Notes under the pieces: model-generated
The model's database searches: none
Told to the model about the DNA's origin: nothing
Seen by the model: only the letters and a program-made list of their open reading frames with translations
Program-made: the position numbers and the translations under genes
From: Candidatus Sumerlaeaceae bacterium
GTDB lineage: Bacteria; Sumerlaeota; Sumerlaeia; Sumerlaeales; Sumerlaeaceae
Direction: 5' to 3'
NCBI GenBank assembly: GCA_049968255.1
Contig: JBMFRB010000009.1
Location: 64,001-128,000, forward strand
DNA: 64,000 nt
Shown here: one piece after another, positions 13,823 to 58,238 of the stretch
Layout of the letters: each line of letters opens with the position of its first letter
Position numbering within the stretch: the first letter of the stretch is position 1

Positions 13823-14673
13823 CCGAATGGCCGTGGATTGTGCGCGGTCGGCGCGTCCTGCCCGCTGGCCGCTCGCTCGTGATGGGGATCCTCAATGTTA
13901 GCCCCGATAGCTTCTCTGATGGCGGACGTTTTCGCGATGCACAAGAAGCCGTGGACGCCGCGCTAAAGATGCTTGCCGATGGGGCCGACATCATCGACGT
14001 CGGTGGAGAAAGCTCGCGTCCTGGCCGCTCGGGGCCTGTGCCCGCGCAGGAAGAATTGCGCCGCGTTCTGCCTGTGGTGAAGGCGCTGCGCGAAAAGGCG
14101 CCTCAGGCGCTCATTTCCGTGGACACCTATAAAGCCGAAGTCGCCGAGCAGGCGCTCGATGCGGGGGCGGACATCATCAACGATATTTATGCTCTCCGCT
14201 ATGCCCCGAGCGTCGCTGATCTCGTCGCGCGTCATAAAGCTGGACTTGTTCTCATGCACATGCAGGGCACGCCCGAAACCATGCAGGTGAATCCGACTTA
14301 CCAAAACGTCGTCGTTGAAATAAAGAATGAGTTGCGTCAAGCTTTACAACTGGCGCTTGAACGCGGGGTGCCGGAGGAAGCCATAGCCATCGATCCCGGT
14401 TTCGGTTTTGGAAAAACCGTCGAGCACAACGTCGAACTGCTAGCCCAGCTCGAGTATTTTCGCCTACTCCAGCGACCCATTTGTGTCGGCGTGTCGCGCA
14501 AGCGTTTTCTTGGTGCTCTGTGTGGCGGGCTGGATGTCGATGAGCGCGAGGAGGCTACCCTCGCTGCAGTGACCATTGCAGTTCTTCACGGTGCAGCAAT
14601 TGTTCGCGTGCACAACGTCAAAGCCGCCAAACGCGCCTTAGCTGTGGCGGATGCCGTGTTGGCGCGTTTGTAA
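13819..14673 (+). CDS. folP: Dihydropteroate synthase
   Basis: 'VMGILNVSPDSFSDGG', 'DVGGESSRPG', 'ISVDTYK', 'DPGFGFGKT', 'SRKRF', 'RVHNV'. Confidence 0.97.
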   Translation: MTEWPWIVRGRRVLPAGRSLVMGILNVSPDSFSDGGRFRDAQEAVDAALKMLADGADIIDVGGESSRPGRSGPVPAQEELRRVLPVVKALREKAPQALISVDTYKAEVAEQALDAGADIINDIYALRYAPSVADLVARHKAGLVLMHMQGTPETMQVNPTYQNVVVEIKNELRQALQLALERGVPEEAIAIDPGFGFGKTVEHNVELLAQLEYFRLLQRPICVGVSRKRFLGALCGGLDVDEREEATLAAVTIAVLHGAAIVRVHNVKAAKRALAVADAVLARL

Positions 14674-14908
14674 ATCATCGTCCTCGTTCTGTCAATCCCA
14701 GCAACGGTCTGGTTTCCCCCTGGCCTGTTTCTTCCCGTCGCTCCAGGCACTCGCTCGGGCTTTTCATTTGTCATTACGTCATTTGGGTGCCGTTGTTACA
14801 TCATCAAAAGAAAGACTTGCAATCGGAACCGGTTTTCGTCTATATGGCAAATTGGCCTGCGAAAAGGCGAGTCGCTATTGGACCTCATGGCAAAGGAGGA
14901 AAACTACC

Positions 14909-15727
14909 ATGAAAAGGATCGCTTTGGCAGCGATGATGCTGCTTGCATCAGTGTCAATGTGGGCGGCGAAAACCTACACCGTGCCCTACACGACTCAAAC
15001 GATTACGCTCGATGGCGTGGCTAGCGAAGTTGCTTGGGCAGCTGCCGCCATCGCAGGCGGAGATTTCGTTGCCCACGATTCGGGAGTCCCTGGAACACTG
15101 TCCACACAGCAGACAACTTTCAAAGCGCTGTGGGACGACAACAATCTTTACATCTATGTGCAGACTCAGGATCTGGCGCCGGTTTTCGACGTGAACCTCA
15201 CAACAAACAACCAGACCCTGACATTCTCCAAGGACGACTTCGAGTTTTTCCTGGACCCGATTTCGGCGCGCAACAACGAGCCCAATCCCACGCACAAATA
15301 CCAGCTTGTCATTTTCCCCCAGACCGATGCGGCTGGTTTGATGTCGAATCCTCCGGCGGCGTTCAAGTGGGTTGCGGCGGGCAACACCGACTTCCCCTTC
15401 CCACCGACAAGCTGGCCCTCAGGCGTGAATATCCAGGTCGCAATAGTTCCGGTTTCTTCGCCTGCCGGCTATGCGGCTGAGCTCGCAATTCCGTGGAGCG
15501 TATTTGATGTTGCGCTCGTCAACACGGAGCCCTTCAGCCTGCCACCCCTCAACGGTGACACATGGTCCGTGCAAGTGTGTCGCCTCCATGATTCCGGAAA
15601 CAACACGGCGGCGAGTAAATGGAATCCTACATCAACAGCTGGCTTCCGCACCAAGCCATGGGGACTTTGGATCTTTACTGGCAAGCCAGCACCTACGCGC
15701 GCCGTGGATTGGCAACTTCTCGAGTAG
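14909..15727 (+). CDS. Secreted CBM9/DOMON-like carbohydrate-binding protein with C-terminal DWxL tail
   Basis: RBS AAGGAGG at 14893; signal 'MKRIALAAMMLLASVSMWA'; CBM9-like 'ITLDG', 'KALWDDNNLYI', 'DDFEFFLDP', 'YAAELAIPW'; ends 'PTRAVDWQLLE'. Confidence 0.8.
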   Translation: MKRIALAAMMLLASVSMWAAKTYTVPYTTQTITLDGVASEVAWAAAAIAGGDFVAHDSGVPGTLSTQQTTFKALWDDNNLYIYVQTQDLAPVFDVNLTTNNQTLTFSKDDFEFFLDPISARNNEPNPTHKYQLVIFPQTDAAGLMSNPPAAFKWVAAGNTDFPFPPTSWPSGVNIQVAIVPVSSPAGYAAELAIPWSVFDVALVNTEPFSLPPLNGDTWSVQVCRLHDSGNNTAASKWNPTSTAGFRTKPWGLWIFTGKPAPTRAVDWQLLE

Positions 15728-39675: not shown

Positions 39676-41118
39676 CTATTGGTAAAGCGACCAATCGTCC
39701 CCAACGCTTGACGGCGGCGCATCAAAGGCTGGATAATTCGTGAACTCGACCGTTACGCGCCCGCGCCAGTCCGCCGTTTCGAAATCATAGGTGCCCGGCG
39801 TCTGTGTGGACACGGTAAGGGTCGTATCAGCAAGGTTATCATACGCATTCGTGATGTCTTCCGTGATCCCGTAGAGCAGGTCGTAATCAATCTCCTTTGT
39901 GTTTGTCTTGAGCACAAGCTGCGTTTCTCCCGGCAAAATCATGTCGTCGAACCAGAGAGCATCAAGGGTATGGGTGGTCTGTGCCGAAAGGCGGTAGTAA
40001 GGGAAATTCGTGTCATCGTAGCGATACTCGTGAATCGGGTCTGTGATCCCATAGAGTACCTGCGCCCGCGGCGAAAAAACGGAGACGCCGAACACGTACT
40101 CGCCGTCTCCGAGCCCAGAACGCTCTTTTGAGTTTTTGATAAGCACCTGCGCCAAACGGACGGTCACGCGTCGGCGCCCAAAGAGATCCGCCGCGATTCC
40201 GGCGCGCAATCCTTGGTTGTCTTTGCTACTTTCGTGAGTTGCGTGCACACAGCTTCGTGTGGGCCAAAGACCCAGGTATTTCGATTGTGCGCTGAGCTTG
40301 TGAAAAAAGGTGTCGCGCAAGAGTTGCACCCCATCATTGGGTTTTTGCGCTGCCAGCGTCAACGCGTAGCTATTTAAATTGTCATCCGATGGAATCCAAA
40401 TATGAATCGGAATAAGGCCAAGGAAAGGATTATCCGCTTCGTCATGCGGAGTGTAGATGTGGGCGTCTATCCAGCTATAGCTCATGTGCTCGAGATCTAT
40501 GGGATTCAGGTCTAGGACGTCGCTCATGAAATTCCGCAGCGAGCTGCCCCCCTCGCTGGCAATCCAATTGCCTGCCACCACTCCCTCGACCACAATCCAG
40601 CGAGCGATTTTGCCGCTGCTCACCAGCTGCTCGACGTCCTTCTCAACAATCCACCGTGAGACGAGTCCGCCCATACTCACCCCGAATAGGTTGATCTGCT
40701 GAGCCCCGGACCGCCGCATAACCTCCTTCGCATACTTCGCGGTGATGAGTGCGTAGCGGGGAACCCCTCCGCCGTAAGTGGATGTGACGGCTTCAAGATC
40801 GGCGATGTCTTGCGCTGTGTAGTAGGGGGGCGGCGTCTCGCCGTAATAATTTGCGAAAGCGACCTGATTTGGTGCGTAAGGGGCTACGTCCGCCGTGGGG
40901 AGTCCCACGGTCGCTGCTAGAGCTGTCACCGTCGGTGATGCAGTGTCTGCACCAAACACCCCATGGCTGCTGGCTCCGTCTTTATCAAAACCTCGCACCA
41001 CAATGGTTGCTGTGTGACTTGGCGGAGCGACTGCATGCAAAACCCCTGGGCTTATTGATAGTCCAAGAACGCCCATTGCACCCATGAGTACCCGCACACT
41101 CGAGTTCATCGCGCTCAC
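39676..41118 (-). CDS. Secreted alpha/beta-hydrolase (lipase/esterase-like) with C-terminal DWxLY tail
   Basis: Signal peptide; nucleophile elbow 'GVSMGG', 'NDGVQ', 'ATHES'; ends 'PSSVGDDWSLYQ'. Confidence 0.7.
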   Translation of the reverse strand: MSAMNSSVRVLMGAMGVLGLSISPGVLHAVAPPSHTATIVVRGFDKDGASSHGVFGADTASPTVTALAATVGLPTADVAPYAPNQVAFANYYGETPPPYYTAQDIADLEAVTSTYGGGVPRYALITAKYAKEVMRRSGAQQINLFGVSMGGLVSRWIVEKDVEQLVSSGKIARWIVVEGVVAGNWIASEGGSSLRNFMSDVLDLNPIDLEHMSYSWIDAHIYTPHDEADNPFLGLIPIHIWIPSDDNLNSYALTLAAQKPNDGVQLLRDTFFHKLSAQSKYLGLWPTRSCVHATHESSKDNQGLRAGIAADLFGRRRVTVRLAQVLIKNSKERSGLGDGEYVFGVSVFSPRAQVLYGITDPIHEYRYDDTNFPYYRLSAQTTHTLDALWFDDMILPGETQLVLKTNTKEIDYDLLYGITEDITNAYDNLADTTLTVSTQTPGTYDFETADWRGRVTVEFTNYPAFDAPPSSVGDDWSLYQ

Positions 41119-47695: not shown

Positions 47696-48853
47696 TTAGT
47701 AGAGGCTCCAGTCGGACACACCGGCTTTTTGCACTTTGATGTTGTCGAAGCTCACATTGAACGTGCCACCTGTGCCGGTGCCATTGTTCGATAAACCCAG
47801 CCGCCATTCAACGATGTGCGACAAGTCAAGCCCAGGGGTCGAGCCAGCCTGCTGTACATACCAGCTCGCAGGATTGCCAAAGCTCACTGTTGTCCATCCG
47901 CTCGATGTTGGCACGGCTTGGTCTGTGGTGGCCAAATACGTCCCGTCAGCATCGATCAGCCCCAACCAGATCTGCTGATTCGTCGCAGCCGGGTCGCCTT
48001 TTACATCCACGAGGACGTTAGCTGCGCCGCTGATATTCGCTGCTTGGCTAATCCGGCGTGCAATTTGAGCTGTAACCCAGGCAGTGTTGCCCATGGTAAA
48101 TGTGCCTTTGATGGCATAATCTCCAGGGCTGCCAGAGACACCGATGGCGGAGTCAGCGACCACACTGCAACCTGAATCCACAGTTCCCGGGTGGGTGCGC
48201 TCCTGCGCATTAGCTGTGGAATCAAAAATATCGCAGTTATCGAGCACCGCGTTGAAGGGCGGGACTCCAGGGTCCGGCTCGAGTGTGTAAGTAACGGCGC
48301 CAACGGTGTCCCAGTTGGAACTATCGCCGACCACAAGCTGAATAGTCGAGCCAAGTCCACCGGGGAACGCAGCGGAGATGTCGCCAGGAATCAGTGTGTT
48401 GAGGGGGATAGAAATTTCGACATTGGTTGCAGCCTGCCAGGGGTAAAATGCAGCAACACTCGCGGGGGTTGCTGAACCATTATTGAAGGTTGCTGTAGTT
48501 TCGCCGTACATCGAGGCGCCAGCGACCAACAGATCCGAGCCGATTCCCGAGGCGAAGAGATTATACCCTGTACTTGAGGTATTATCCCCATCGATGCCGA
48601 TGAGGTCGTTGCCACTGAAGGCCACCGAGTTGTAGCTTTCGATGCGCACGTAGAGATTGGTTGCATCGTTAGCCACATAGATGGCCTTCAAGTCGCGGCC
48701 GGAGCTCTGATCCTGAGCATCCGTCCCCAAGGGGGCAATGCCATACCAGTCGTCGGCGTAACCATCGACTCCGATACTGGCAAATGTTCCTGCAAACGTC
48801 GTTGCAGAGAGAGCTAGAGCTAGAGTTGCGATGAGGGTAACGCGTGTATTCAT
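47696..48853 (-). CDS. Secreted two-domain carbohydrate-binding-like protein (DOMON-like + CBM11-like) with C-terminal DWxLY tail
   Basis: RBS AAAAGGAG; signal 'MNTRVTLIATLALALSATTFA'; 'VDGYADDW', 'VANDATNLYVRI', 'IDGDNTSSTGY', 'GWTTVSF..LDLSHI..VSFDNIKV'; ends 'AGVSDWSLY'. Confidence 0.75.
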   Translation of the reverse strand: MNTRVTLIATLALALSATTFAGTFASIGVDGYADDWYGIAPLGTDAQDQSSGRDLKAIYVANDATNLYVRIESYNSVAFSGNDLIGIDGDNTSSTGYNLFASGIGSDLLVAGASMYGETTATFNNGSATPASVAAFYPWQAATNVEISIPLNTLIPGDISAAFPGGLGSTIQLVVGDSSNWDTVGAVTYTLEPDPGVPPFNAVLDNCDIFDSTANAQERTHPGTVDSGCSVVADSAIGVSGSPGDYAIKGTFTMGNTAWVTAQIARRISQAANISGAANVLVDVKGDPAATNQQIWLGLIDADGTYLATTDQAVPTSSGWTTVSFGNPASWYVQQAGSTPGLDLSHIVEWRLGLSNNGTGTGGTFNVSFDNIKVQKAGVSDWSLY

Positions 48854-48901
48854 GGTTCTCACTCCTTTTAATCTTTCGTAAAAATGTGTCAGTCTGCTTC
48901 G

Positions 48902-50053
48902 TTACAATTCGTCAGCGACATTGTCGTTTAACGGAAGCCAGTCATCGCTGTTCACCTCCTTTCGGAGAAGCTTGCAAAGCTCGGCGGAAAAGCCGAGAAG
49001 GCCAGGTATACACCACATGTTTTCAGGATGGCAATGGGGCGGCGCATTTTGCTGCATAATAGCATAGGCGATTGCCCAGCCATGCCGGCGAAAAAATGCC
49101 TCGTTGTGGGCTCGCGTACACCCCGTGCGAGGGGGAACAATAGCTTCACCCGCCATTTCAATGACCCCCACGCCTTCGCTCTTGATCTGCTTCAAACGTG
49201 GCGAAGACACGTAAAGAGGGTGACGGAAAATAAGATGAACGATAAGCTTGCCCTCATCCATGCGCATAAGGTAGTTGAACGTACATTTTCCCACGTCGAG
49301 CTGCTTCCATTTCGCGACGATTTTTGAGGCCAAGGCCAAGACGGCTTTCGCTGTGCCTTTGAGTCGAGCGACCGGTGCAGGCCAATCGAGTAGCTCAATT
49401 TCAACGTCTTCCTGAGTTCGACATTCGAGAGGGCGAGCTTGCTCCAGGGGCAACAAAAGCGATCGGAAGATCTGAAAATGATGATGTCCCAACACCGAGG
49501 CTCCTGCCCAGGCCACGTCGCTGTTCGAGGCAAGAAGCCAGTGCGGGGCTTGGCGTACGAAGGCGGCAGCTTCCCTCAACGATTGCTCATTCACTCGCAT
49601 CGGCTCGTGAGCACGCAAATTGAGCACAAAATGACCAGGATGCAGCGGGAATGGCGTTGGGTGCGCAAAGTACGGCGTGCCCGCCAAATCGCATTCCAAT
49701 ACGCGGAGCTTTTCCTTACCGGGAGAACCGATGTTCTCGTAACATAGCGGACACGTTTGCGCCCGCGCGCCTTCCGGCAGACGATAGCTCAGGCGCGAGT
49801 AATTGACCTGCAGTCTGAGGCTGGGCAAATTCTCACGCGGTGCAAAATCGAGAAAAATGTTTGTCTCCGTAAGATGGTCGAAATAACCAACCGAGGCGAG
49901 CCACATTTCCAGCTCGTGCAAAGCCGCCTCGAGTCCTTGTGCCCGGTAGAAAGCTCCAAGCAACTTCTGCACGTCCGCCTGTTCGAGGAGCTGGCCTTGG
50001 GGGAGGACCTCATGCAGTTTGGATGCCGCGCTCATGAGCATCTCCTCGGTCAT
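48902..50053 (-). CDS. Hexose-1-phosphate uridylyltransferase, class II GalT-like
   Basis: 'AGASVLGHHHFQ' resembles Firmicutes GalT 'GGSILSHDHFQ'; 'KSEGVGVIEMAGEAIVPPR' resembles 'KKENIGLIEVMGLAVLP'. Confidence 0.7.
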   Translation of the reverse strand: MTEEMLMSAASKLHEVLPQGQLLEQADVQKLLGAFYRAQGLEAALHELEMWLASVGYFDHLTETNIFLDFAPRENLPSLRLQVNYSRLSYRLPEGARAQTCPLCYENIGSPGKEKLRVLECDLAGTPYFAHPTPFPLHPGHFVLNLRAHEPMRVNEQSLREAAAFVRQAPHWLLASNSDVAWAGASVLGHHHFQIFRSLLLPLEQARPLECRTQEDVEIELLDWPAPVARLKGTAKAVLALASKIVAKWKQLDVGKCTFNYLMRMDEGKLIVHLIFRHPLYVSSPRLKQIKSEGVGVIEMAGEAIVPPRTGCTRAHNEAFFRRHGWAIAYAIMQQNAPPHCHPENMWCIPGLLGFSAELCKLLRKEVNSDDWLPLNDNVADEL

Positions 50054-53000
50054 CGCGCTTCGACCTCCCGGAGCCAGAGTATGCCTTTTCTGCGTGGGGG
50101 ACCGTCGCCTGCCGCTTGATAGATCCGCAGAGCCGAAGCCTCGATCGGCGGGAAGCTTACCACGGATTCAGGAGTCTCTTCCTGCGTCTCCGCCACGCCC
50201 ACCGTTTTCCACTCAGCGGAACCCAAAGGCCGGACCTGGATTTCCACCTTTTTCGAGCTCCAGTAGTGGCCGTCGTCGAAGGCCCAGTAGAGTCTAACCT
50301 CCTGGAGGACGGCAGGCTCGGGAAACTCGAACTGGGCCCAATGGGGAACACTGCCCTCATCACTGGCCCACGCCGCATTAGCCCAATCAATGCCAGTGGT
50401 GGAGGTGGCCCCGTCATTCAGCGGTTTCTCTGAGTAACCGAGATAGCAAGAATCCACAAGCACCTGGAGGTCGGACCTGCGGAGAATCGAAGCCTTTTGT
50501 GCCAGAATTGTCACAGGGATCTCAACCTGCGTGAATGTGCCATTCTGATGACGGAAGGCCAAATTCAGCAGGCACTTCGCGTCCTCACTGACGGGGCGCT
50601 TTCCCTCAAGCTTGACTTCTATTTTTGCGTGGCCTTCGGCATCAAGTTTGATCGGCGCTACGGGACCAACGCGCAATTCGTTACACCCGGACGATGCAAC
50701 CAGAGAGACGTCTATCGGTTTGTTCAAATTATTGATCAGTTCTATATCGAGGATCGCCTTGTCGCCAAGGACGACCTTGTTCGGAATCCCCGTGACAAGA
50801 ATAGGAGGAAGCACCGGCACCGTCGTCACATAGTAAGGCGCCAGGCTGTTGGCATCAGTATTAGCAATCCGCCAGGTGAGGAAGGTGCCTGGTTGCGCGT
50901 CGCGGGGAATGGTGATCGTGAATTGCTTGCTCGCGGTTCTTTGCAAACCATGGGCTGGGCCGAGAGCCCACTCGAACGAAAGCTCCTGGTGCCGGCTGTT
51001 CCCAACTAACTCGATGGTATAGACCGTGCCCGGAACGGCAGCTTTTGGGTAGTTCGCCGCGAAGCTCTGCTTGCTTACGAGTTCTTCGCGGGCAGCCGCA
51101 AGGCTTAGCCATGCCGAGAAAGCTCGAAGCCACTCTTCCCGGTAAAGCTCAGGCAATGTTGGTAACGTCTCTGCAAGAAGCTGGCGCAACTCTGCACTGC
51201 GCTGCGGATCTGCGCTCAACGTGGCGATTTGCTTTGCGATGTCTGCACTCAAGTGCCCATACCGCACCTGCTTGCGCGACAGAAACTCGATCTCCTCCAA
51301 TTGCTCAGCTATAGCTGTGCTCAGAGCGTCCTGATCTCGTCTCACGAATTGCAGCGCCACCGATCGGTGGGCTCCCACAGGGCAATCGACCGTGGTGACT
51401 TTCCCGCTGGCAAGCATTTGCCCGCTGAGCGCTTCAAGAACAACGTACGGACTATCGCCCGTAAGGCGCGGATCCAATCTGACCTTTACAGGAACAGTCG
51501 TTTCGGCCGTGTTGAAGAGAGTGAGATAAAAGTTTGGTGCGGCTAATAGGCCTGACAGCCACGGGCCACCTCCCCAACGTTCGACGAGGACACTTGACGC
51601 GTCGACCGAAGCCAACGTCACGGGCTCCCATCCTGCTGCCGTCGTTCGTTGCTGCACTCGCATGTACTTCAGGAAGAGAGGCCGATCCTCGTTATAGAGC
51701 GTCGGCTGCTCCCAATAGGGGTTGTTAGCCGCATCATGACTGAAAAAACCGGGCCAAAAACCGTAATGGAAACAATGCGCAAAGTATTCCTCGACTTTTT
51801 CGCCACGAAAATCGGCGAATGCCACATTGAGAAGGAAACAATAGGGCTTGTGGTAGAGCATCGTGCGGATAAAGTCGAGGTTTTCTGTTCGCGCCCAATG
51901 CCCCCAGGGAGTTTCGATCCCAAGAATGTCGAGAAAATGCACACTCCACGGCCATTGATAAAGCGCCGTGTTGGCCATCAAAAGGGCTCCGCGCTCGTGA
52001 AGCCTTCGCCCCACCTCTGCCGCAAATTCGAAGTTGTGCATCATGATGACTTGAGCGGCGGCCCCTGATTCGCCATCAAACGTGAGGGGAAAATCTGAGG
52101 CAACCAGATGCTCATGACGGAAATTCAATCGGTACGAATCCCAACCCTCGAAGCTGTCCATGTAGAGTCCGGCTGGCATTTCGGGATCGAAAGTCCCCTG
52201 CTCGAAGTCTGCGTTCGCTAATGGCAGCGAGGACGATTGAACCTTCGCAATCCAGACCTCTCCTGAGGGGGCTGCGAGGCGTAGCCCTTTCAGCTTCTGC
52301 TGCGGAAGCACAAATTGATATTCACGGAATGTGCCTGCGAGAACCTCTTCCCCCACGGTCAAGGTTCCATTTTCCGTGAGAACATCGATTTTTAGCCGGC
52401 CGTTTTGGCGTCCTTTGGCCGTAACTCGGAGAGTCTCGCCGGCAGGAGAAGCCACGACCTCCTTGAATTTTTGCGTAATGTTTTCCCCCGTCGCTAGATA
52501 AACAGCACGTCCTCGCGCGCCCACAACACCGTCGGTCAAAACGCCGCCACCCACCCACTCGGCGGGAGAGTCGTTGGCGCGGCGTCGCATGAGCTCGATG
52601 TACGGATTCCAGTTGAGATCAAACGCTGTGACTGGATTTTTGTCAGTCCGCAGCAAATCCGGATCGCAGTTGGTAGGAATCCTTGCCCCTTTTGCCCAAG
52701 GCGTGTTGACCCATTCGAGCAAAAGTTGTCCCTGAGCATCGAAGGCTGCTCCCGAACGCACCGCGGACCCTTGCGGTGTGTCGAGTGATGCAAGGTAGTC
52801 GTTTAGCTTACTCAGTTGTCTCGGGAACGAATCCTCCAACGAGATGTATTGCACGGGCGGTTCGCAGTAAACTAGGGGTTTGACCCCATTCGCATGATCC
52901 CAAGCCACCGACACATCCGGATGATACTCGTGGAAAGCGAAACCAAAATCCTCCACCCGCTCGACCTTGTCCAATTGCGTGAAGGGCATCCACTGGCCTT

Positions 53001-53808
53001 CGCGTTGGACTCGTTTGGCGTACGATGCTGAATTCAGTTGATAGTAGATTTGCGCCAAGCCACGGAAACCAAACTCGCGGGGGGCATCGAAAAGATCGAA
53101 TGCAAAGGGCACTCGACCCCGGAGCTTACGTGGTCGCTGGCTCAACGTCACGTCGCATTCGGCCACCAGTGCCCCTCTTTTTCCATCCCAGCGAATTCGG
53201 TGAATCCGTGGCTCGTTGAGAGGCAAGCCAACCCCTAAGGCCCCATGGAAAGTGTTGATCCCCCCGAACGAGTAGCGAGACATTGCTTTGTGCGCTCCCG
53301 CAGGCGTAAATATCGCCACGCATTTCTCTTCTCCGGGCGAGACTTTCTCTACTCTGTGCAAGTCAACAAGCCACAGCGGGGCGCGGTCGCTCACCGGCAC
53401 AATCATGGCGAAGGTAAGCGGAATATCCTCGGCTGACTCAGTGACAAGTTCCCCTTCAGCCCTGAGCGCTCCAGATTTCTCATGCCACGAGGCTCGAACG
53501 GTAAGCTGCGAGTCGAACTCTAGCTCTTGACGGATTACCCCGTTCTCGTTTTTGACCGAAATACGTTTTGGCGCAATCTCGGCGCGCGACTCGCCATCCT
53601 GCGTGGGCTTTTTGCCGAGCCAACGTTTAACGGCGAAGCTGACAGGAGCTTCTGAAATGGCACGTCCATTCTGCACGACAAGCACCTTGTTGCCATCATG
53701 CAGTTGCATGCTCAGTGCCGCGTAAGCAGCATCACCAGCAAATGCCAAGGTGGCAGCTAGGGCAGCCGTTCGTACCAACTCTTTGAAAAGATTCGTACGC
53801 ACTTTCAT
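50050..53808 (-). CDS. Large secreted glycoside-hydrolase-like protein with C-terminal discoidin (F5/8C/CBM32-like) domain
   Basis: Signal peptide; barrel-like motifs 'GLYMDSFEGW', 'LLMANT', 'DILGIE'; C-terminal 'AWASDE..HWAQFEF..LRIYQ..LREVE'. Confidence 0.65.
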   Translation of the reverse strand: MKVRTNLFKELVRTAALAATLAFAGDAAYAALSMQLHDGNKVLVVQNGRAISEAPVSFAVKRWLGKKPTQDGESRAEIAPKRISVKNENGVIRQELEFDSQLTVRASWHEKSGALRAEGELVTESAEDIPLTFAMIVPVSDRAPLWLVDLHRVEKVSPGEEKCVAIFTPAGAHKAMSRYSFGGINTFHGALGVGLPLNEPRIHRIRWDGKRGALVAECDVTLSQRPRKLRGRVPFAFDLFDAPREFGFRGLAQIYYQLNSASYAKRVQREGQWMPFTQLDKVERVEDFGFAFHEYHPDVSVAWDHANGVKPLVYCEPPVQYISLEDSFPRQLSKLNDYLASLDTPQGSAVRSGAAFDAQGQLLLEWVNTPWAKGARIPTNCDPDLLRTDKNPVTAFDLNWNPYIELMRRRANDSPAEWVGGGVLTDGVVGARGRAVYLATGENITQKFKEVVASPAGETLRVTAKGRQNGRLKIDVLTENGTLTVGEEVLAGTFREYQFVLPQQKLKGLRLAAPSGEVWIAKVQSSSLPLANADFEQGTFDPEMPAGLYMDSFEGWDSYRLNFRHEHLVASDFPLTFDGESGAAAQVIMMHNFEFAAEVGRRLHERGALLMANTALYQWPWSVHFLDILGIETPWGHWARTENLDFIRTMLYHKPYCFLLNVAFADFRGEKVEEYFAHCFHYGFWPGFFSHDAANNPYWEQPTLYNEDRPLFLKYMRVQQRTTAAGWEPVTLASVDASSVLVERWGGGPWLSGLLAAPNFYLTLFNTAETTVPVKVRLDPRLTGDSPYVVLEALSGQMLASGKVTTVDCPVGAHRSVALQFVRRDQDALSTAIAEQLEEIEFLSRKQVRYGHLSADIAKQIATLSADPQRSAELRQLLAETLPTLPELYREEWLRAFSAWLSLAAAREELVSKQSFAANYPKAAVPGTVYTIELVGNSRHQELSFEWALGPAHGLQRTASKQFTITIPRDAQPGTFLTWRIANTDANSLAPYYVTTVPVLPPILVTGIPNKVVLGDKAILDIELINNLNKPIDVSLVASSGCNELRVGPVAPIKLDAEGHAKIEVKLEGKRPVSEDAKCLLNLAFRHQNGTFTQVEIPVTILAQKASILRRSDLQVLVDSCYLGYSEKPLNDGATSTTGIDWANAAWASDEGSVPHWAQFEFPEPAVLQEVRLYWAFDDGHYWSSKKVEIQVRPLGSAEWKTVGVAETQEETPESVVSFPPIEASALRIYQAAGDGPPRRKGILWLREVEAR

Positions 53809-55289
53809 TTCTCAGGGTAAGCAAATGGTGCTCCGTCAGGCAGCGTGTCTGCCGTGTTCCACTTTGCGTCGGTGGTTGCGAACCACATTTTGATCTTTTT
53901 GCCCGAACTCAGGCCAATCCGCGATTTAGGGATCACATAAATGACGCTGTTGCCGCTTCCTTGTGGCCCAGGGGTAAGGGACCCTAACTGATCCCAGCCC
54001 CATCCGGTTCCCGCGTTCTTCTGATGTTTAAAAAACGTCGTTCCCTCGACCATAAAATCGGCACCCGAACGGGTTCCGTCACTATAACCGGTTGCGTCAT
54101 CACCGTCGGCATTGATAAAAATGTGGATGCCGTCGAGCTTAGGGGTTGCTGCAAACTTGAGTTTGATTGTGAGTTTATCGGCCGATTCCGCTAGCTCGGC
54201 GCCAACGAGATCGAGAGTGGGATCGGACGCATCTCCTTGCGGATCGGTAAGGGACGTGACGTTCTCCCCGGTCAGGGACTGTGCTGTGCCCTTGTTGCCA
54301 CCGGTTTCTGCAGCGGGCTTTCCCTTACTCGTCGGCGAACTTTGTTCCGCTACTTTCGAAGATGCTGGCGCGGCTGGTTTCTCCGCACTTTCTCCTTGGC
54401 TAGCTGCTGGCGCAGCTGGTCGCGCATTCGAAGAGGCTTTGTTGGTCACAATGAGAGGCGAGCCCTCAGGGGCCCAGTCCGCTGGTTGCCAGTTCGATGT
54501 TTGGCTACCTACCCACAGTCGGACTTCCCCAGCCAGCGGCTTCAACAAGTTCGCTGGGACAGAAAACCGAAGTGAGGAACCCTTCACTTCGACAGTCACC
54601 GCGCTGACCTGGTCAAACTTCCACTCGACCGAGTTATTGCCAGAAAATTTGTAAAGGAATCCCCCCTGGATGACGTAATCGGCGCCTTTGAAAGTGGCTG
54701 TCGCATAGCCCGTGTCTTCATTATCGTCGGAATCTATGAAGATGTTGAACCTTGGCGATGTCTGAACGGATGGCGAATCTGATACATCAACTCTCACTCG
54801 GAGCTTATCGCTTAGCGACGCGCAGACTCGCAGCACATCGAGATCGCCGCTTGGCGCATCGTTGGGGTTGTCATCCATGCACGCCATTACTGCGTCACTG
54901 GTTGCCCCACCCATTCCGCTCGCCTGGCCTGCCCCCGCCTGAGCCACTTGTTTCCCATCGAGAAAAGTGAGCAGCTCAGCAGGCGTGTGGATTCTTTCTG
55001 CTCGCCGAAGCTCTTTTCCCTCCGCAAAGAGCACAAAAGTCGGGGTCCACGGGACATTGGCTTGAATGGCTCTCTGCATACCTTCTGAAGAGTCTGTGTT
55101 CACGCGCTCGAATCTGAGGCGAGCAAGGTGATCGCGCACACGGTGATCCGTAAGAGCGTCTTCACGCACCTCCCTACTGAGCACACTTTTTGGGGATTCG
55201 AAATAAATGAGACTTTGACTCGCGCCACGAATCCCCATAGGGATGAGCAGCGCACTTAGGCACAGTGAACTATAACGATAAATCTTCAT
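53805..55289 (-). CDS. Secreted protein: CxxC-less thioredoxin-like domain + two DOMON-like repeats
   Basis: Signal peptide; 'VPWTPTFVLF..GKEL'; repeats 'IFIDSDDNEDTGY..GADYVIQG' and 'IFINADGDDATGY..GADFMVEG'. Confidence 0.7.
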   Translation of the reverse strand: MKIYRYSSLCLSALLIPMGIRGASQSLIYFESPKSVLSREVREDALTDHRVRDHLARLRFERVNTDSSEGMQRAIQANVPWTPTFVLFAEGKELRRAERIHTPAELLTFLDGKQVAQAGAGQASGMGGATSDAVMACMDDNPNDAPSGDLDVLRVCASLSDKLRVRVDVSDSPSVQTSPRFNIFIDSDDNEDTGYATATFKGADYVIQGGFLYKFSGNNSVEWKFDQVSAVTVEVKGSSLRFSVPANLLKPLAGEVRLWVGSQTSNWQPADWAPEGSPLIVTNKASSNARPAAPAASQGESAEKPAAPASSKVAEQSSPTSKGKPAAETGGNKGTAQSLTGENVTSLTDPQGDASDPTLDLVGAELAESADKLTIKLKFAATPKLDGIHIFINADGDDATGYSDGTRSGADFMVEGTTFFKHQKNAGTGWGWDQLGSLTPGPQGSGNSVIYVIPKSRIGLSSGKKIKMWFATTDAKWNTADTLPDGAPFAYPEK

Positions 55290-57538: not shown

Positions 57539-58135
57539 TTAGTCGTTCGACCTGAAGAAACGGATCCCGCCACCCGCACGCAGGACGTCGCCATTGGACA
57601 CCGTGCCATTCGTCGGGTCATATTTGCCGTTGAGCGGCTCGGCGATATCATTGTCCGATGCGCACCCAACGAGATCGAAGTCCAGATCTGGCCCCATGCA
57701 GCGAACCGTCCACCCCGATTCGCCATTTAGCAGGAACGTGTTCGTCGAGTAGAGGAAATAGCGGGGATAGGGGCCGTACCAGTCGTCATAATTTTTCGCA
57801 GCGCAAGTCCCCGTTGCAGCAGGATATTTCTTTGGCTTTCCCGCCTGGAATACATCCTGAGGAACCGACGAGATGTAGGCCACGGGCGTGGTCACCAAAT
57901 GGATCTGCTGCTCACCCAAAAGGCCGCGGACAAAGACCGTGAAAGGCGGATAATGGTTGTTGTCCACGTAATAGGACTCGAGAGCTGTCGCGATCGAACG
58001 CAGATCCGACTTCGCGCGCGAAACCTTTGATCGCGTCTGAGCCTCGAGGAAATTGGGAACCGCAATTGCGGCAAGGATCGCGATGATGGCCACCACGATC
58101 AGCAGTTCGATGAGCGTAAAGCCTGAGCGCTTCAT
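57539..58135 (-). CDS. Prepilin-type N-terminal cleavage/methylation protein (GspG/pilin-like)
   Basis: RBS GGAGGA; 'MKRSG|FTLIELLIVVAIIAILAAIAVPNFLEAQTRSKVSRAKSDLRSIATALESYYVDNNHYP'; 'TTPVAY', 'GPD', 'YDPTNGTVSNGD'. Confidence 0.9.
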   Translation of the reverse strand: MKRSGFTLIELLIVVAIIAILAAIAVPNFLEAQTRSKVSRAKSDLRSIATALESYYVDNNHYPPFTVFVRGLLGEQQIHLVTTPVAYISSVPQDVFQAGKPKKYPAATGTCAAKNYDDWYGPYPRYFLYSTNTFLLNGESGWTVRCMGPDLDFDLVGCASDNDIAEPLNGKYDPTNGTVSNGDVLRAGGGIRFFRSND

Positions 58136-58180
58136 GTGAATCCTCCGAAAAATTGGAATTAATGCCACTTGTGCTACTTC

Positions 58181-58238
58181 ATATTTTTCACACGCCAAAA
58201 AAATCGCAAAAATCTTCTTCATTCGTCAAGATGAAAAA
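58181..58238. promoter_or_regulatory. Candidate ROK (NagC/Mlc-type) operators upstream of the pilin-headed operon
   Basis: ATATTTT-TCACACGCC-AAAAAAA (TT-N9-AA, 58181-58203) and TTCTTCAT-N8-ATGAAAAA (58215-58238), which covers a minus-strand TTGACG. Confidence 0.4.

Follow-up and report, generated by a model that had tools for sequence, protein, structure and literature searches.

Proteins are sorted, anchored or sensed through C-terminal signals of several known kinds. The C-terminal domain (CTD) of type IX secretion systems (T9SS; PF18962, Por_Secre_tail) is a folded beta-sandwich of ~80 residues, and this signal is read in the periplasm, leading to passage and surface attachment. Codes that are read end-on include the peroxisomal targeting signal PTS1, bound by the TPR domain of Pex5, and the ligands of PDZ domains, such as the YxF tails of outer-membrane proteins recognized by DegS; these codes work in the cytosol of eukaryotes or serve to sense stress. 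The WxL domain of Gram-positive bacteria is also C-terminal, spans ~150-200 residues and includes two WxL motifs, and the outer-membrane beta-signal is the last strand of a beta-barrel with an aromatic end. Here we report on a short C-terminal tail with a Trp-Leu-Tyr core found on exported proteins encoded in a 64,000-nucleotide stretch of DNA (hereafter, the window; positions 64,001 to 128,000 of JBMFRB010000009.1, assembly GCA_049968255.1, Candidatus Sumerlaeaceae bacterium), which is part of contig C9 of a 3.12-Mb, 31-contig metagenome-assembled genome of the Sumerlaeota. Within the family of this bacterium, the tail consists of a linker of Pro, Ser, Thr and Ala, the core V-x-[D/E]-W-x-L-[Y/F], an optional Glu, Gln or Asp and the stop codon. 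Sequence comparison and structural modelling suggest that it serves as a short, undescribed sorting or anchoring tag for exported proteins that is read after Sec export, a reading to which we assign a probability of about 0.6.

Three genes of the window were found to carry the tail (Table 1): the focal gene, an alpha/beta-hydrolase-like gene and a CBM9-like gene. These had been singled out in a sequence-only reading of the window as exported proteins with a common end, and all three open reading frames (ORFs) proved to be real, with ends as claimed. The tail sequences given were correct, although the range for the hydrolase was one codon short, as its 12 residues and stop codon reach position 39714. 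The N-termini of all three proteins were of the classic Sec type, with a basic start, then hydrophobic residues and a cleavage region rich in Ala; the signal-peptide start of the CBM9-like gene is the ATG at 14909, nested in a longer ORF (14651-15727). The further claim that no predicted cytoplasmic protein of the window ends in this way held, as the end was found on no other ORF among the 45 non-overlapping ones listed. By Pfam analysis, the CBM9-like protein matched CBM9_1 (E 6.8e-10), the hydrolase-like protein matched Abhydrolase_1 only under the cut-off, and the focal protein had no family above the cut-off. The focal protein was modelled with AlphaFold2 from a 14-sequence alignment (mean predicted local distance difference test, pLDDT, 73.4) as two beta-sandwich domains, of which the C-terminal one resembles the CBM11, CBM4 and CBM27 carbohydrate-binding modules (CBMs; best Foldseek match 1v0a, CBM11, E 9e-8). 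In this model the last strand stops at residue 376 of 385, and pLDDT falls below 50 for residues 380-385.

The tail was then counted across the genome. Among 10,369 stop-to-stop ORFs of at least 100 amino acids, 24 end in [DEN]W.[LVH][YFL][EQD]?$ or DWSQFE$. Trp is present in 24/24 by definition of this set; it is preceded at position W-3 by Val (15) or Ala (5) and at W-1 by Asp (18), Glu (5) or Asn (1), and followed at W+2 by Leu (20) and at W+3 by Tyr (18), Phe (5) or Leu (1). The W+3 residue, mostly Tyr or Phe, sits 0 or 1 residue from the end in 24/24 tails, with position W+4 empty in 13 and occupied by Glu in 8, Gln in 2 and Asp in 1. Upstream of the core is a short linker rich in Pro, Ser, Thr and Ala. 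Thus, the consensus proposed from the window alone stood at its core, V-x-[DE]-W-x-[LIV]-[YF], but its upstream [ST/A] positions are merely linker. With at most one residue after the motif and no Arg or Lys, the tail has neither a transmembrane helix nor a basic end, as had been stated. When, without reference to the motif, each 3-residue pattern within the seven final residues was counted over 2,483 non-overlapping ORFs, the top patterns were all derived from the tail (V..W..Y$, 12 observed versus 0.072 expected;.DW..Y.$, 7 observed versus 0.044 expected), and the core [DE]W.L[YF] was detected 18 times within one residue of a C-terminus compared to 8 times elsewhere in 992,148 residues. By these statistics, chance is excluded as the origin of the tail at the genome level. 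The codons that spell the tail differ among carrier genes, and thus the tail is not a DNA repeat.

The proteins that carry the tail are diverse and typically exported. When the last 12 residues of the 24 carriers were removed, only 3 of 276 pairs were similar (BLASTP, E 1e-3), which leaves 21 body families. Domains identified by Pfam include GH18 (chitinase), GH57 with CBM53/CBM25, polysaccharide deacetylase (CE4) with Golvesin_C, two S8 subtilases (one with a P-domain, one with Golvesin_C), and Kelch, FG-GAP and fn3; for 10 of the 20 non-window carriers a Pfam family was absent. The domain that precedes the tail varies from carrier to carrier. The predicted enrichment of the tail on signal-peptide proteins was borne out by a crude heuristic, which flagged 19/23 tail ORFs compared to 617/2,460 others (Fisher p 1.4e-8); two of the negative tail ORFs are incomplete, interrupted by the contig edge or by a string of N, and the 24th tail ORF, which lay outside the greedy gene set, has a clear signal peptide by eye. 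One carrier (L006) has a weak T2SSG (pseudopilin) match plus TIG and ends ...ACDWMLYD; it has an ordinary signal peptide instead of a prepilin leader and is preceded by genes for a GAF kinase, a sigma-54 regulator, a GT4 glycosyltransferase and a FemAB-like acyltransferase, a gene order reminiscent of exopolysaccharide loci.

The composition and cargo of the tail also bear on whether it binds a polymer directly (lipopolysaccharide, capsule, peptidoglycan or a polysaccharide substrate), acting as a self-anchoring or substrate-binding peptide with no protein receptor. Trp and Tyr are the usual sugar-stacking residues and many carriers are carbohydrate-active or have CBMs, yet direct binding would leave unexplained both the strict rule of end position (18 terminal versus 8 internal) and the acidic residue found before Trp in 23/24 tails. 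Proteases and a lipase-like protein are carriers as well, and eight residues would provide a very small surface. We consider direct polymer binding improbable.

Still less probable, in our view, is that the tail belongs to a named system (T9SS CTD, PEP-CTERM or another tripartite signal, WxL or the outer-membrane beta-signal), is the last strand of a shared domain or arose by chance. The tail occupies the same site as the named signals, includes the letters W-x-L and has an aromatic end like many outer-membrane proteins. However, no Pfam or NCBIfam model was found to cover the tail region, and NCBIfam gave no match at the tails of the three window proteins. The tail has no hydrophobic helix or basic cluster, is 8-10 rather than ~80 residues long and has an extra residue after the aromatic in 11/24 cases. 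The idea that it is the last strand of a shared domain was not borne out, as the tail is free and disordered in the AlphaFold model and the bodies are soluble and of many families. Exosortase (PF09721) had 0 matches in this genome, compared to matches in 9 of 75 Sumerlaeota genomes, and sortase (PF04203) also had 0 matches, with the control positive in 3 genomes and the search not extended to rhombosortase and the CPBP family. The exosortase was present in 7/7 genomes of family f8 (G013-G019), a family with no excess of the Trp-Leu-Tyr tail, as well as in G057 and G059. The T9SS protein SprA (PF14349) had no match in this genome, nor in any of 14 control genomes, and this result speaks neither for nor against a T9SS.

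Homologues of the carriers were compared for retention of the tail. Seven focal homologues (P0001-P0007; 52-100% identical) retain V-x-[DE]W[SMA]LY. All 11 hydrolase orthologue ORFs, from 10 genomes and down to 42% identity, end in W-x-[LIV]-[YFH](E/Q/N/P)?, the residue that precedes Trp being variable. The tail is kept in 8/8 complete CBM9 orthologue ORFs, seven with Trp and one with Phe in its place, and in a fourth tail family Val, Asp, Trp, Asn and Leu of the tail are invariant in 8 sequences with bodies down to 25% identity. Taken together, these alignments indicate that the tail is under purifying selection in orthologues whose bodies drift to 25-45% identity.

Related proteins were also found to exchange the tail for other ends. 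Within the family of this bacterium, focal homologues end in GVTDWSLY and SVNEWSLY; those of family f13 end in SVTDWNTFQ and AAVGNWLSFQ, and those of family f15 in GVAEWMTME and SVSDWMTLE. Five more distant focal homologues have ends of the type P-V-x-x-S-x-[FY]-x-[LV]-[ED], one more ends in TDWMVID, and focal paralogues in the family of this bacterium end in LPVTTSSFQLE and LPVVTSCLEFE. These latter ends represent a second tail, [LV]-P-x-x-[LVT]-S-x-[FWL]-x-[LVIF]-E-stop, that substitutes for the Trp-Leu-Tyr tail on focal paralogues and distant homologues; it is present on 9 ORFs of the genome (Table 1) compared to 24 with the Trp-Leu-Tyr tail and has no model match. A different exchange was detected for the S8 protease with a P-domain. 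Among its 120 best listed homologues, 17 have a [DENQ]W-type end by regular expression, 10 match an expression for a helix plus basic cluster and ~20 more have a helix and Arg cluster by eye; the remainder include proteins that end directly after the P-domain. In the helix-plus-Arg homologues (among P0040-P0105), a V-P-x-x-x-[WP]-like motif precedes the hydrophobic helix and Arg residues cluster behind it, which makes an end of the tripartite type; where the source gives a name, most are labelled Hydrogenedentes. No CTERM model of NCBIfam matched seven of these homologues or the tail-bearing query protease.

The spread of the tail was examined with a DNA pattern for D-W-x-L-[YF]-stop, which gave 356 hits in 75 Sumerlaeota genomes compared to 139 for the reversed control. 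The excess was pronounced in the family of this bacterium (144 versus 21) and in families f10 (25 versus 1), f11 (32 versus 7) and f15 (51 versus 9), and two genomes of another class had 10 versus 0 sites each; other genomes had 7-31 sites each. No excess over the control was detected in families f2, f7, f8 and f16. A wider scan of 185,579 species, with one genome per species, for exact G-V-x-D-W-x-L-Y-TAA gave 46 hits, 19 of which were in open frames: 10 in Sumerlaeota, 8 in seven genomes of a second lineage and 1 in a Caldicoprobacterales record. The seven second-lineage genomes (G075-G081; 4.6-8.4 Mb) have 12-31 sites compared to 2-5 control sites each; for two chance-hit genomes the numbers were 1 versus 4 and 3 versus 3. 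RpoB of five of the seven is 79-82% identical among themselves and 52% identical to that of this genome, and the nearest named records (81-83%) are labelled Candidatus Omnitrophota, a label that is unconfirmed. In G081, 19 ORFs end in [VI]-x-D-W-x-L-[YF] (20 loci examined); these mostly have a signal peptide, with bodies of the CBM9, GH5, Laminin_G_3 or CAP type or of no known family, and one is just 76 amino acids long. Viral contigs had 2 pattern hits, neither of which was in an open frame. According to these sequence surveys, most Sumerlaeota families have the tag in one variant form or another, and it extends to a second, phylum-distant lineage. The description of the tail as lineage-specific must be broadened, given its presence in a lineage with RpoB only 52% identical. 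The conditions that the sequence-only reading had set for its own refutation were all tested, each with an outcome in its favour. Overall, the observation made in the window was confirmed, and its interpretation as a sorting or anchoring signal was partly supported.

As a sorting or anchoring tag, the tail could work as follows. The genome encodes Omp85, LpxC and three secretins, and this gene content shows a two-membrane envelope. A carrier would cross the inner membrane by Sec, consistent with the signal peptides detected, and would then fold in the periplasm, leaving the last 8-10 residues, predicted to be unstructured, exposed. An envelope receptor may bind this tail end-on, requiring Trp and Leu-Tyr within one residue of the free carboxyl group; end-on binding is suggested by the position rule at the C-terminus. 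The cargo would finally be moved across the outer membrane or retained at the cell surface, an outcome suggested by the nature of the cargo, which comprises enzymes and binding modules of extracellular type, and by homologues that carry tripartite surface-sorting signals at the same spot. As the tail has no membrane helix, its reader cannot be an intramembrane sortase like those of the exosortase and rhombosortase types, and a soluble or outer-membrane receptor would be expected, with a logic similar to that of the T9SS CTD, PTS1 or PDZ ligands. Secretin-based machinery is the one route for folded proteins that is evident from this genome, and the tail may be linked to it. It is possible, if rather unlikely, that the tail is a portable linear address that passes folded periplasmic proteins to a secretin-based machine of the type II secretion system (T2SS) or pilus-like kind, or to pilin-like proteins.

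Candidate readers were sought among these and other envelope proteins. Of the secretin loci, one is a T2SS-like operon, another a PilMNOPQ cluster and the third a 1,608-amino acid TPR-secretin fusion. This fusion is a single ORF, downstream of a PilM-like gene, that joins TPR repeats to a secretin. Homologues of the fusion were found in 65/75 genomes, tag-poor families included, with only the secretin-proximal part conserved outside the family of this bacterium; ORFs of 1,200-1,900 amino acids that share this region are found in most Sumerlaeota genomes. GspK (PF21687) was detected in 62/75 genomes. The genome also encodes ~12 paralogous GspG-like pseudopilins of 215-260 amino acids with a near-identical N-terminal helix and divergent heads, one of them in the window (a regular expression for the helix gave 20 hits in the genome in all). 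These pilin-like paralogues were dismissed as partners of the tail, as they do not stand systematically beside tail genes (computed distances 1.3 kb to >200 kb). When 224 ORFs within 6 kb of tail genes were clustered by BLAST, the recurrent families were GAF histidine kinases, sigma-54 regulators, GT4 glycosyltransferases and ABC ATPases; two recurrent clusters taken for GspE and GspF proved to be generic families instead. Across these searches, nothing that tracks the tail was found among PDZ and TPR proteins, pilins or components of type II secretion.

One tail protein does have a conserved partner gene. In 6/6 genomes in which a PrsA/parvulin-type foldase (531-613 amino acids) was found, of 13 genomes of the family, the foldase gene follows that of a 374-amino acid tail protein. 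In the genus of this bacterium, this genome (G000) and G055 have a tail-bearing paralogue after the foldase, and in a third genome the contig stops short. Complex prediction for the foldase with the 374-amino acid protein gave scores of 0.07, 0.78 and 0.17 against a mark of 0.32, and carries no weight either way. This operon is relevant to the proposal that the tail is a handle for maturation or quality control, bound by a periplasmic chaperone or PDZ protease (HtrA-type, or a C-terminal processing peptidase of S41) that would fold or activate the carrier or set the time of its degradation. Aromatic-rich C-terminal peptides are bound by PDZ domains of envelope proteases and by SurA-type chaperones, and HtrA-like and other PDZ proteins are encoded in the genome. 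On the other hand, the foldase adjoins just one cargo family and went undetected in 7/13 genomes of the family of this bacterium, the cargo consists of extracellular-type enzymes rather than a cross-section of periplasmic proteins, and homologues would hardly be expected to carry tripartite surface-sorting signals in place of a quality-control handle. We therefore regard such a handle as a doubtful explanation of the tail.

Several points weigh against the reading of the tail as a sorting or anchoring tag. No reader was found, and the neighbours of tail genes are unrelated housekeeping or generic families. Secretins and GspK yielded no signal of co-occurrence, being present in tag-rich and tag-poor families alike, and the PDZ proteins are an ordinary set, none of which adjoins a tail gene. 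Families that seem tag-free use variants such as DWNTFQ and EWMTME, and thus presence or absence scored by D-W-x-L-[YF]-stop is unreliable for at least some 'negative' families; for this reason, phylogenetic profiling on that pattern was abandoned. Both regular expressions for the tail were composed after hits were seen, the gene set was a greedy pick of ORFs, and the signal-peptide heuristic is crude enough to flag about one quarter of all ORFs. Finally, several large exported-looking proteins of the window are without the tail, which is thus not required by all proteins of this type.

The neighbourhood of the focal gene includes, on the same strand, an ORF of 383 amino acids without a Pfam family that ends 40 bases upstream of it. 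This ORF lies after the gene for a 1,253-amino acid protein with an F5/8 type C domain, and the three genes may be co-transcribed. The coordinates of these and other features are listed in Table 1.

Table 1. Genes and ORFs of the window and of other contigs that relate to the C-terminal tail. Positions without a contig name are those of the window.
Feature	Position	Strand	Remarks
Focal gene, exported two-domain beta-sandwich protein	47696..48862	-	388 amino acids from GTG at 48862; 385 amino acids from ATG at 48853 (47696-48853)
Tail of focal gene, AGVSDWSLY (...KAGVSDWSLY)	codons 47699..47725, stop 47696-47698	-	
Exported alpha/beta-hydrolase-like gene	39676..41118	-	480 amino acids; C-terminal end PSSVGDDWSLYQ; SSVGDDWSLYQ codons 39679-39711
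Exported CBM9-like gene	14909..15727	+	272 amino acids; end PTRAVDWQLLE; TRAVDWQLLE tail codons 15695-15724
ORF upstream of focal gene	48902-50053	-	383 amino acids
Gene for protein with F5/8 type C domain	50050-53811		1,253 amino acids
GspG-like pseudopilin	57539-58225	-	
TPR-secretin fusion	C2:23470-28296		1,608 amino acids
Tail gene with weak T2SSG match	C2:35507-36508		L006
Conserved operon of tail protein and foldase	C2:112933-117219		Loci L206-L211
Second-tail ORF	C4:241266-244103		
Second-tail ORF	C1:118386-120971		
Second-tail ORF	C2:232-2361		
Second-tail ORF	C10:25534-27600		
Second-tail ORF	C16:6712-8439		
Second-tail ORF	C1:130926-131987		
Second-tail ORF	C8:83538-84599		
Second-tail ORF	C4:115051-115815		
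Second-tail ORF	C9:128203-130770		203 bases beyond the window end

Should the tail prove to be a sorting tag, sequence alone would be enough to recognize the digestive enzymes that two uncultured lineages export, among them chitinases, amylase-like enzymes, proteases and lipase-like proteins, and ~8 residues with no membrane anchor would suffice to address folded proteins in a two-membrane bacterium. The tag could also serve as bait in a search for its receptor and, given a tractable host or a reconstituted reader, as a tool for display or secretion. Were it an address for secretin-based secretion, it would be the first simple peptide signal of its kind, common to two phylum-level lineages and legible in the sequence itself. 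To our knowledge, the catalogue of tripartite signals does not include such a tag, and no signal of this kind has come out of the lengthy search for one that directs type II secretion. Literature on Sumerlaeota, Sumerlaea chitinivorans, Hinthialibacterota, sorting signals and the motif strings, as far as its text was accessible, revealed no such tail, and the accessible part of PMC8092238 makes no mention of one. Named by no Pfam or NCBIfam model and by none of this literature, the tail looks like an undescribed element.

The tail compares with the T9SS CTD in logic only: both are C-terminal, have no membrane anchor and are found on Sec-exported digestive enzymes of a two-membrane bacterium. 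By contrast to this domain, the tail is 8-10 residues with a pLDDT below 50, and no match to PF18962 or TIGR04183 was detected on 23 proteins scanned. With PTS1 and PDZ ligands it shares a very short motif 0 or 1 residue from the free end, the extra residue being Glu, Gln or Asp, but no TPR or PDZ protein of this genome was identified as its reader. The tail differs from the WxL domain in having a single W-x-L within 8 residues, no WxL Pfam hit and a host with an outer membrane. It differs from the outer-membrane beta-signal in that the bodies are soluble enzymes and CBMs, the tail forms no strand in the model and 11/24 tails have a residue beyond the aromatic. The second tail of this genome is similarly short and on exported proteins, but its sequence and spacing are different.

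Compared to the signals of the LPXTG/sortase, PEP-CTERM/exosortase, GlyGly-CTERM/rhombosortase and MYXO-CTERM/myxosortase systems, the tail has no transmembrane helix or Arg cluster and would thus provide no membrane-held precursor for an intramembrane enzyme. By the checklist of eight attributes of C-terminal sorting signals in section 5 of a preprint (bioRxiv 10.1101/2023.06.07.544157), the tail has 6/8, namely location at the extreme C-terminus, many copies per genome, near-invariant residues, signal peptides on most carriers (19-20 of 23 by the crude heuristic, with N-termini also inspected by eye), unrelated carriers and homologues with another signal, and is without exactly the helix and the basic cluster. 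The last of the shared attributes (attribute 8, homologues without the signal or with another) is represented by the helix-plus-Arg ends of S8 proteases and by the tail swaps of the focal family. Since only the helix and basic-cluster attributes fail, the tail would appear to be a sorting tag of a different mechanical kind.

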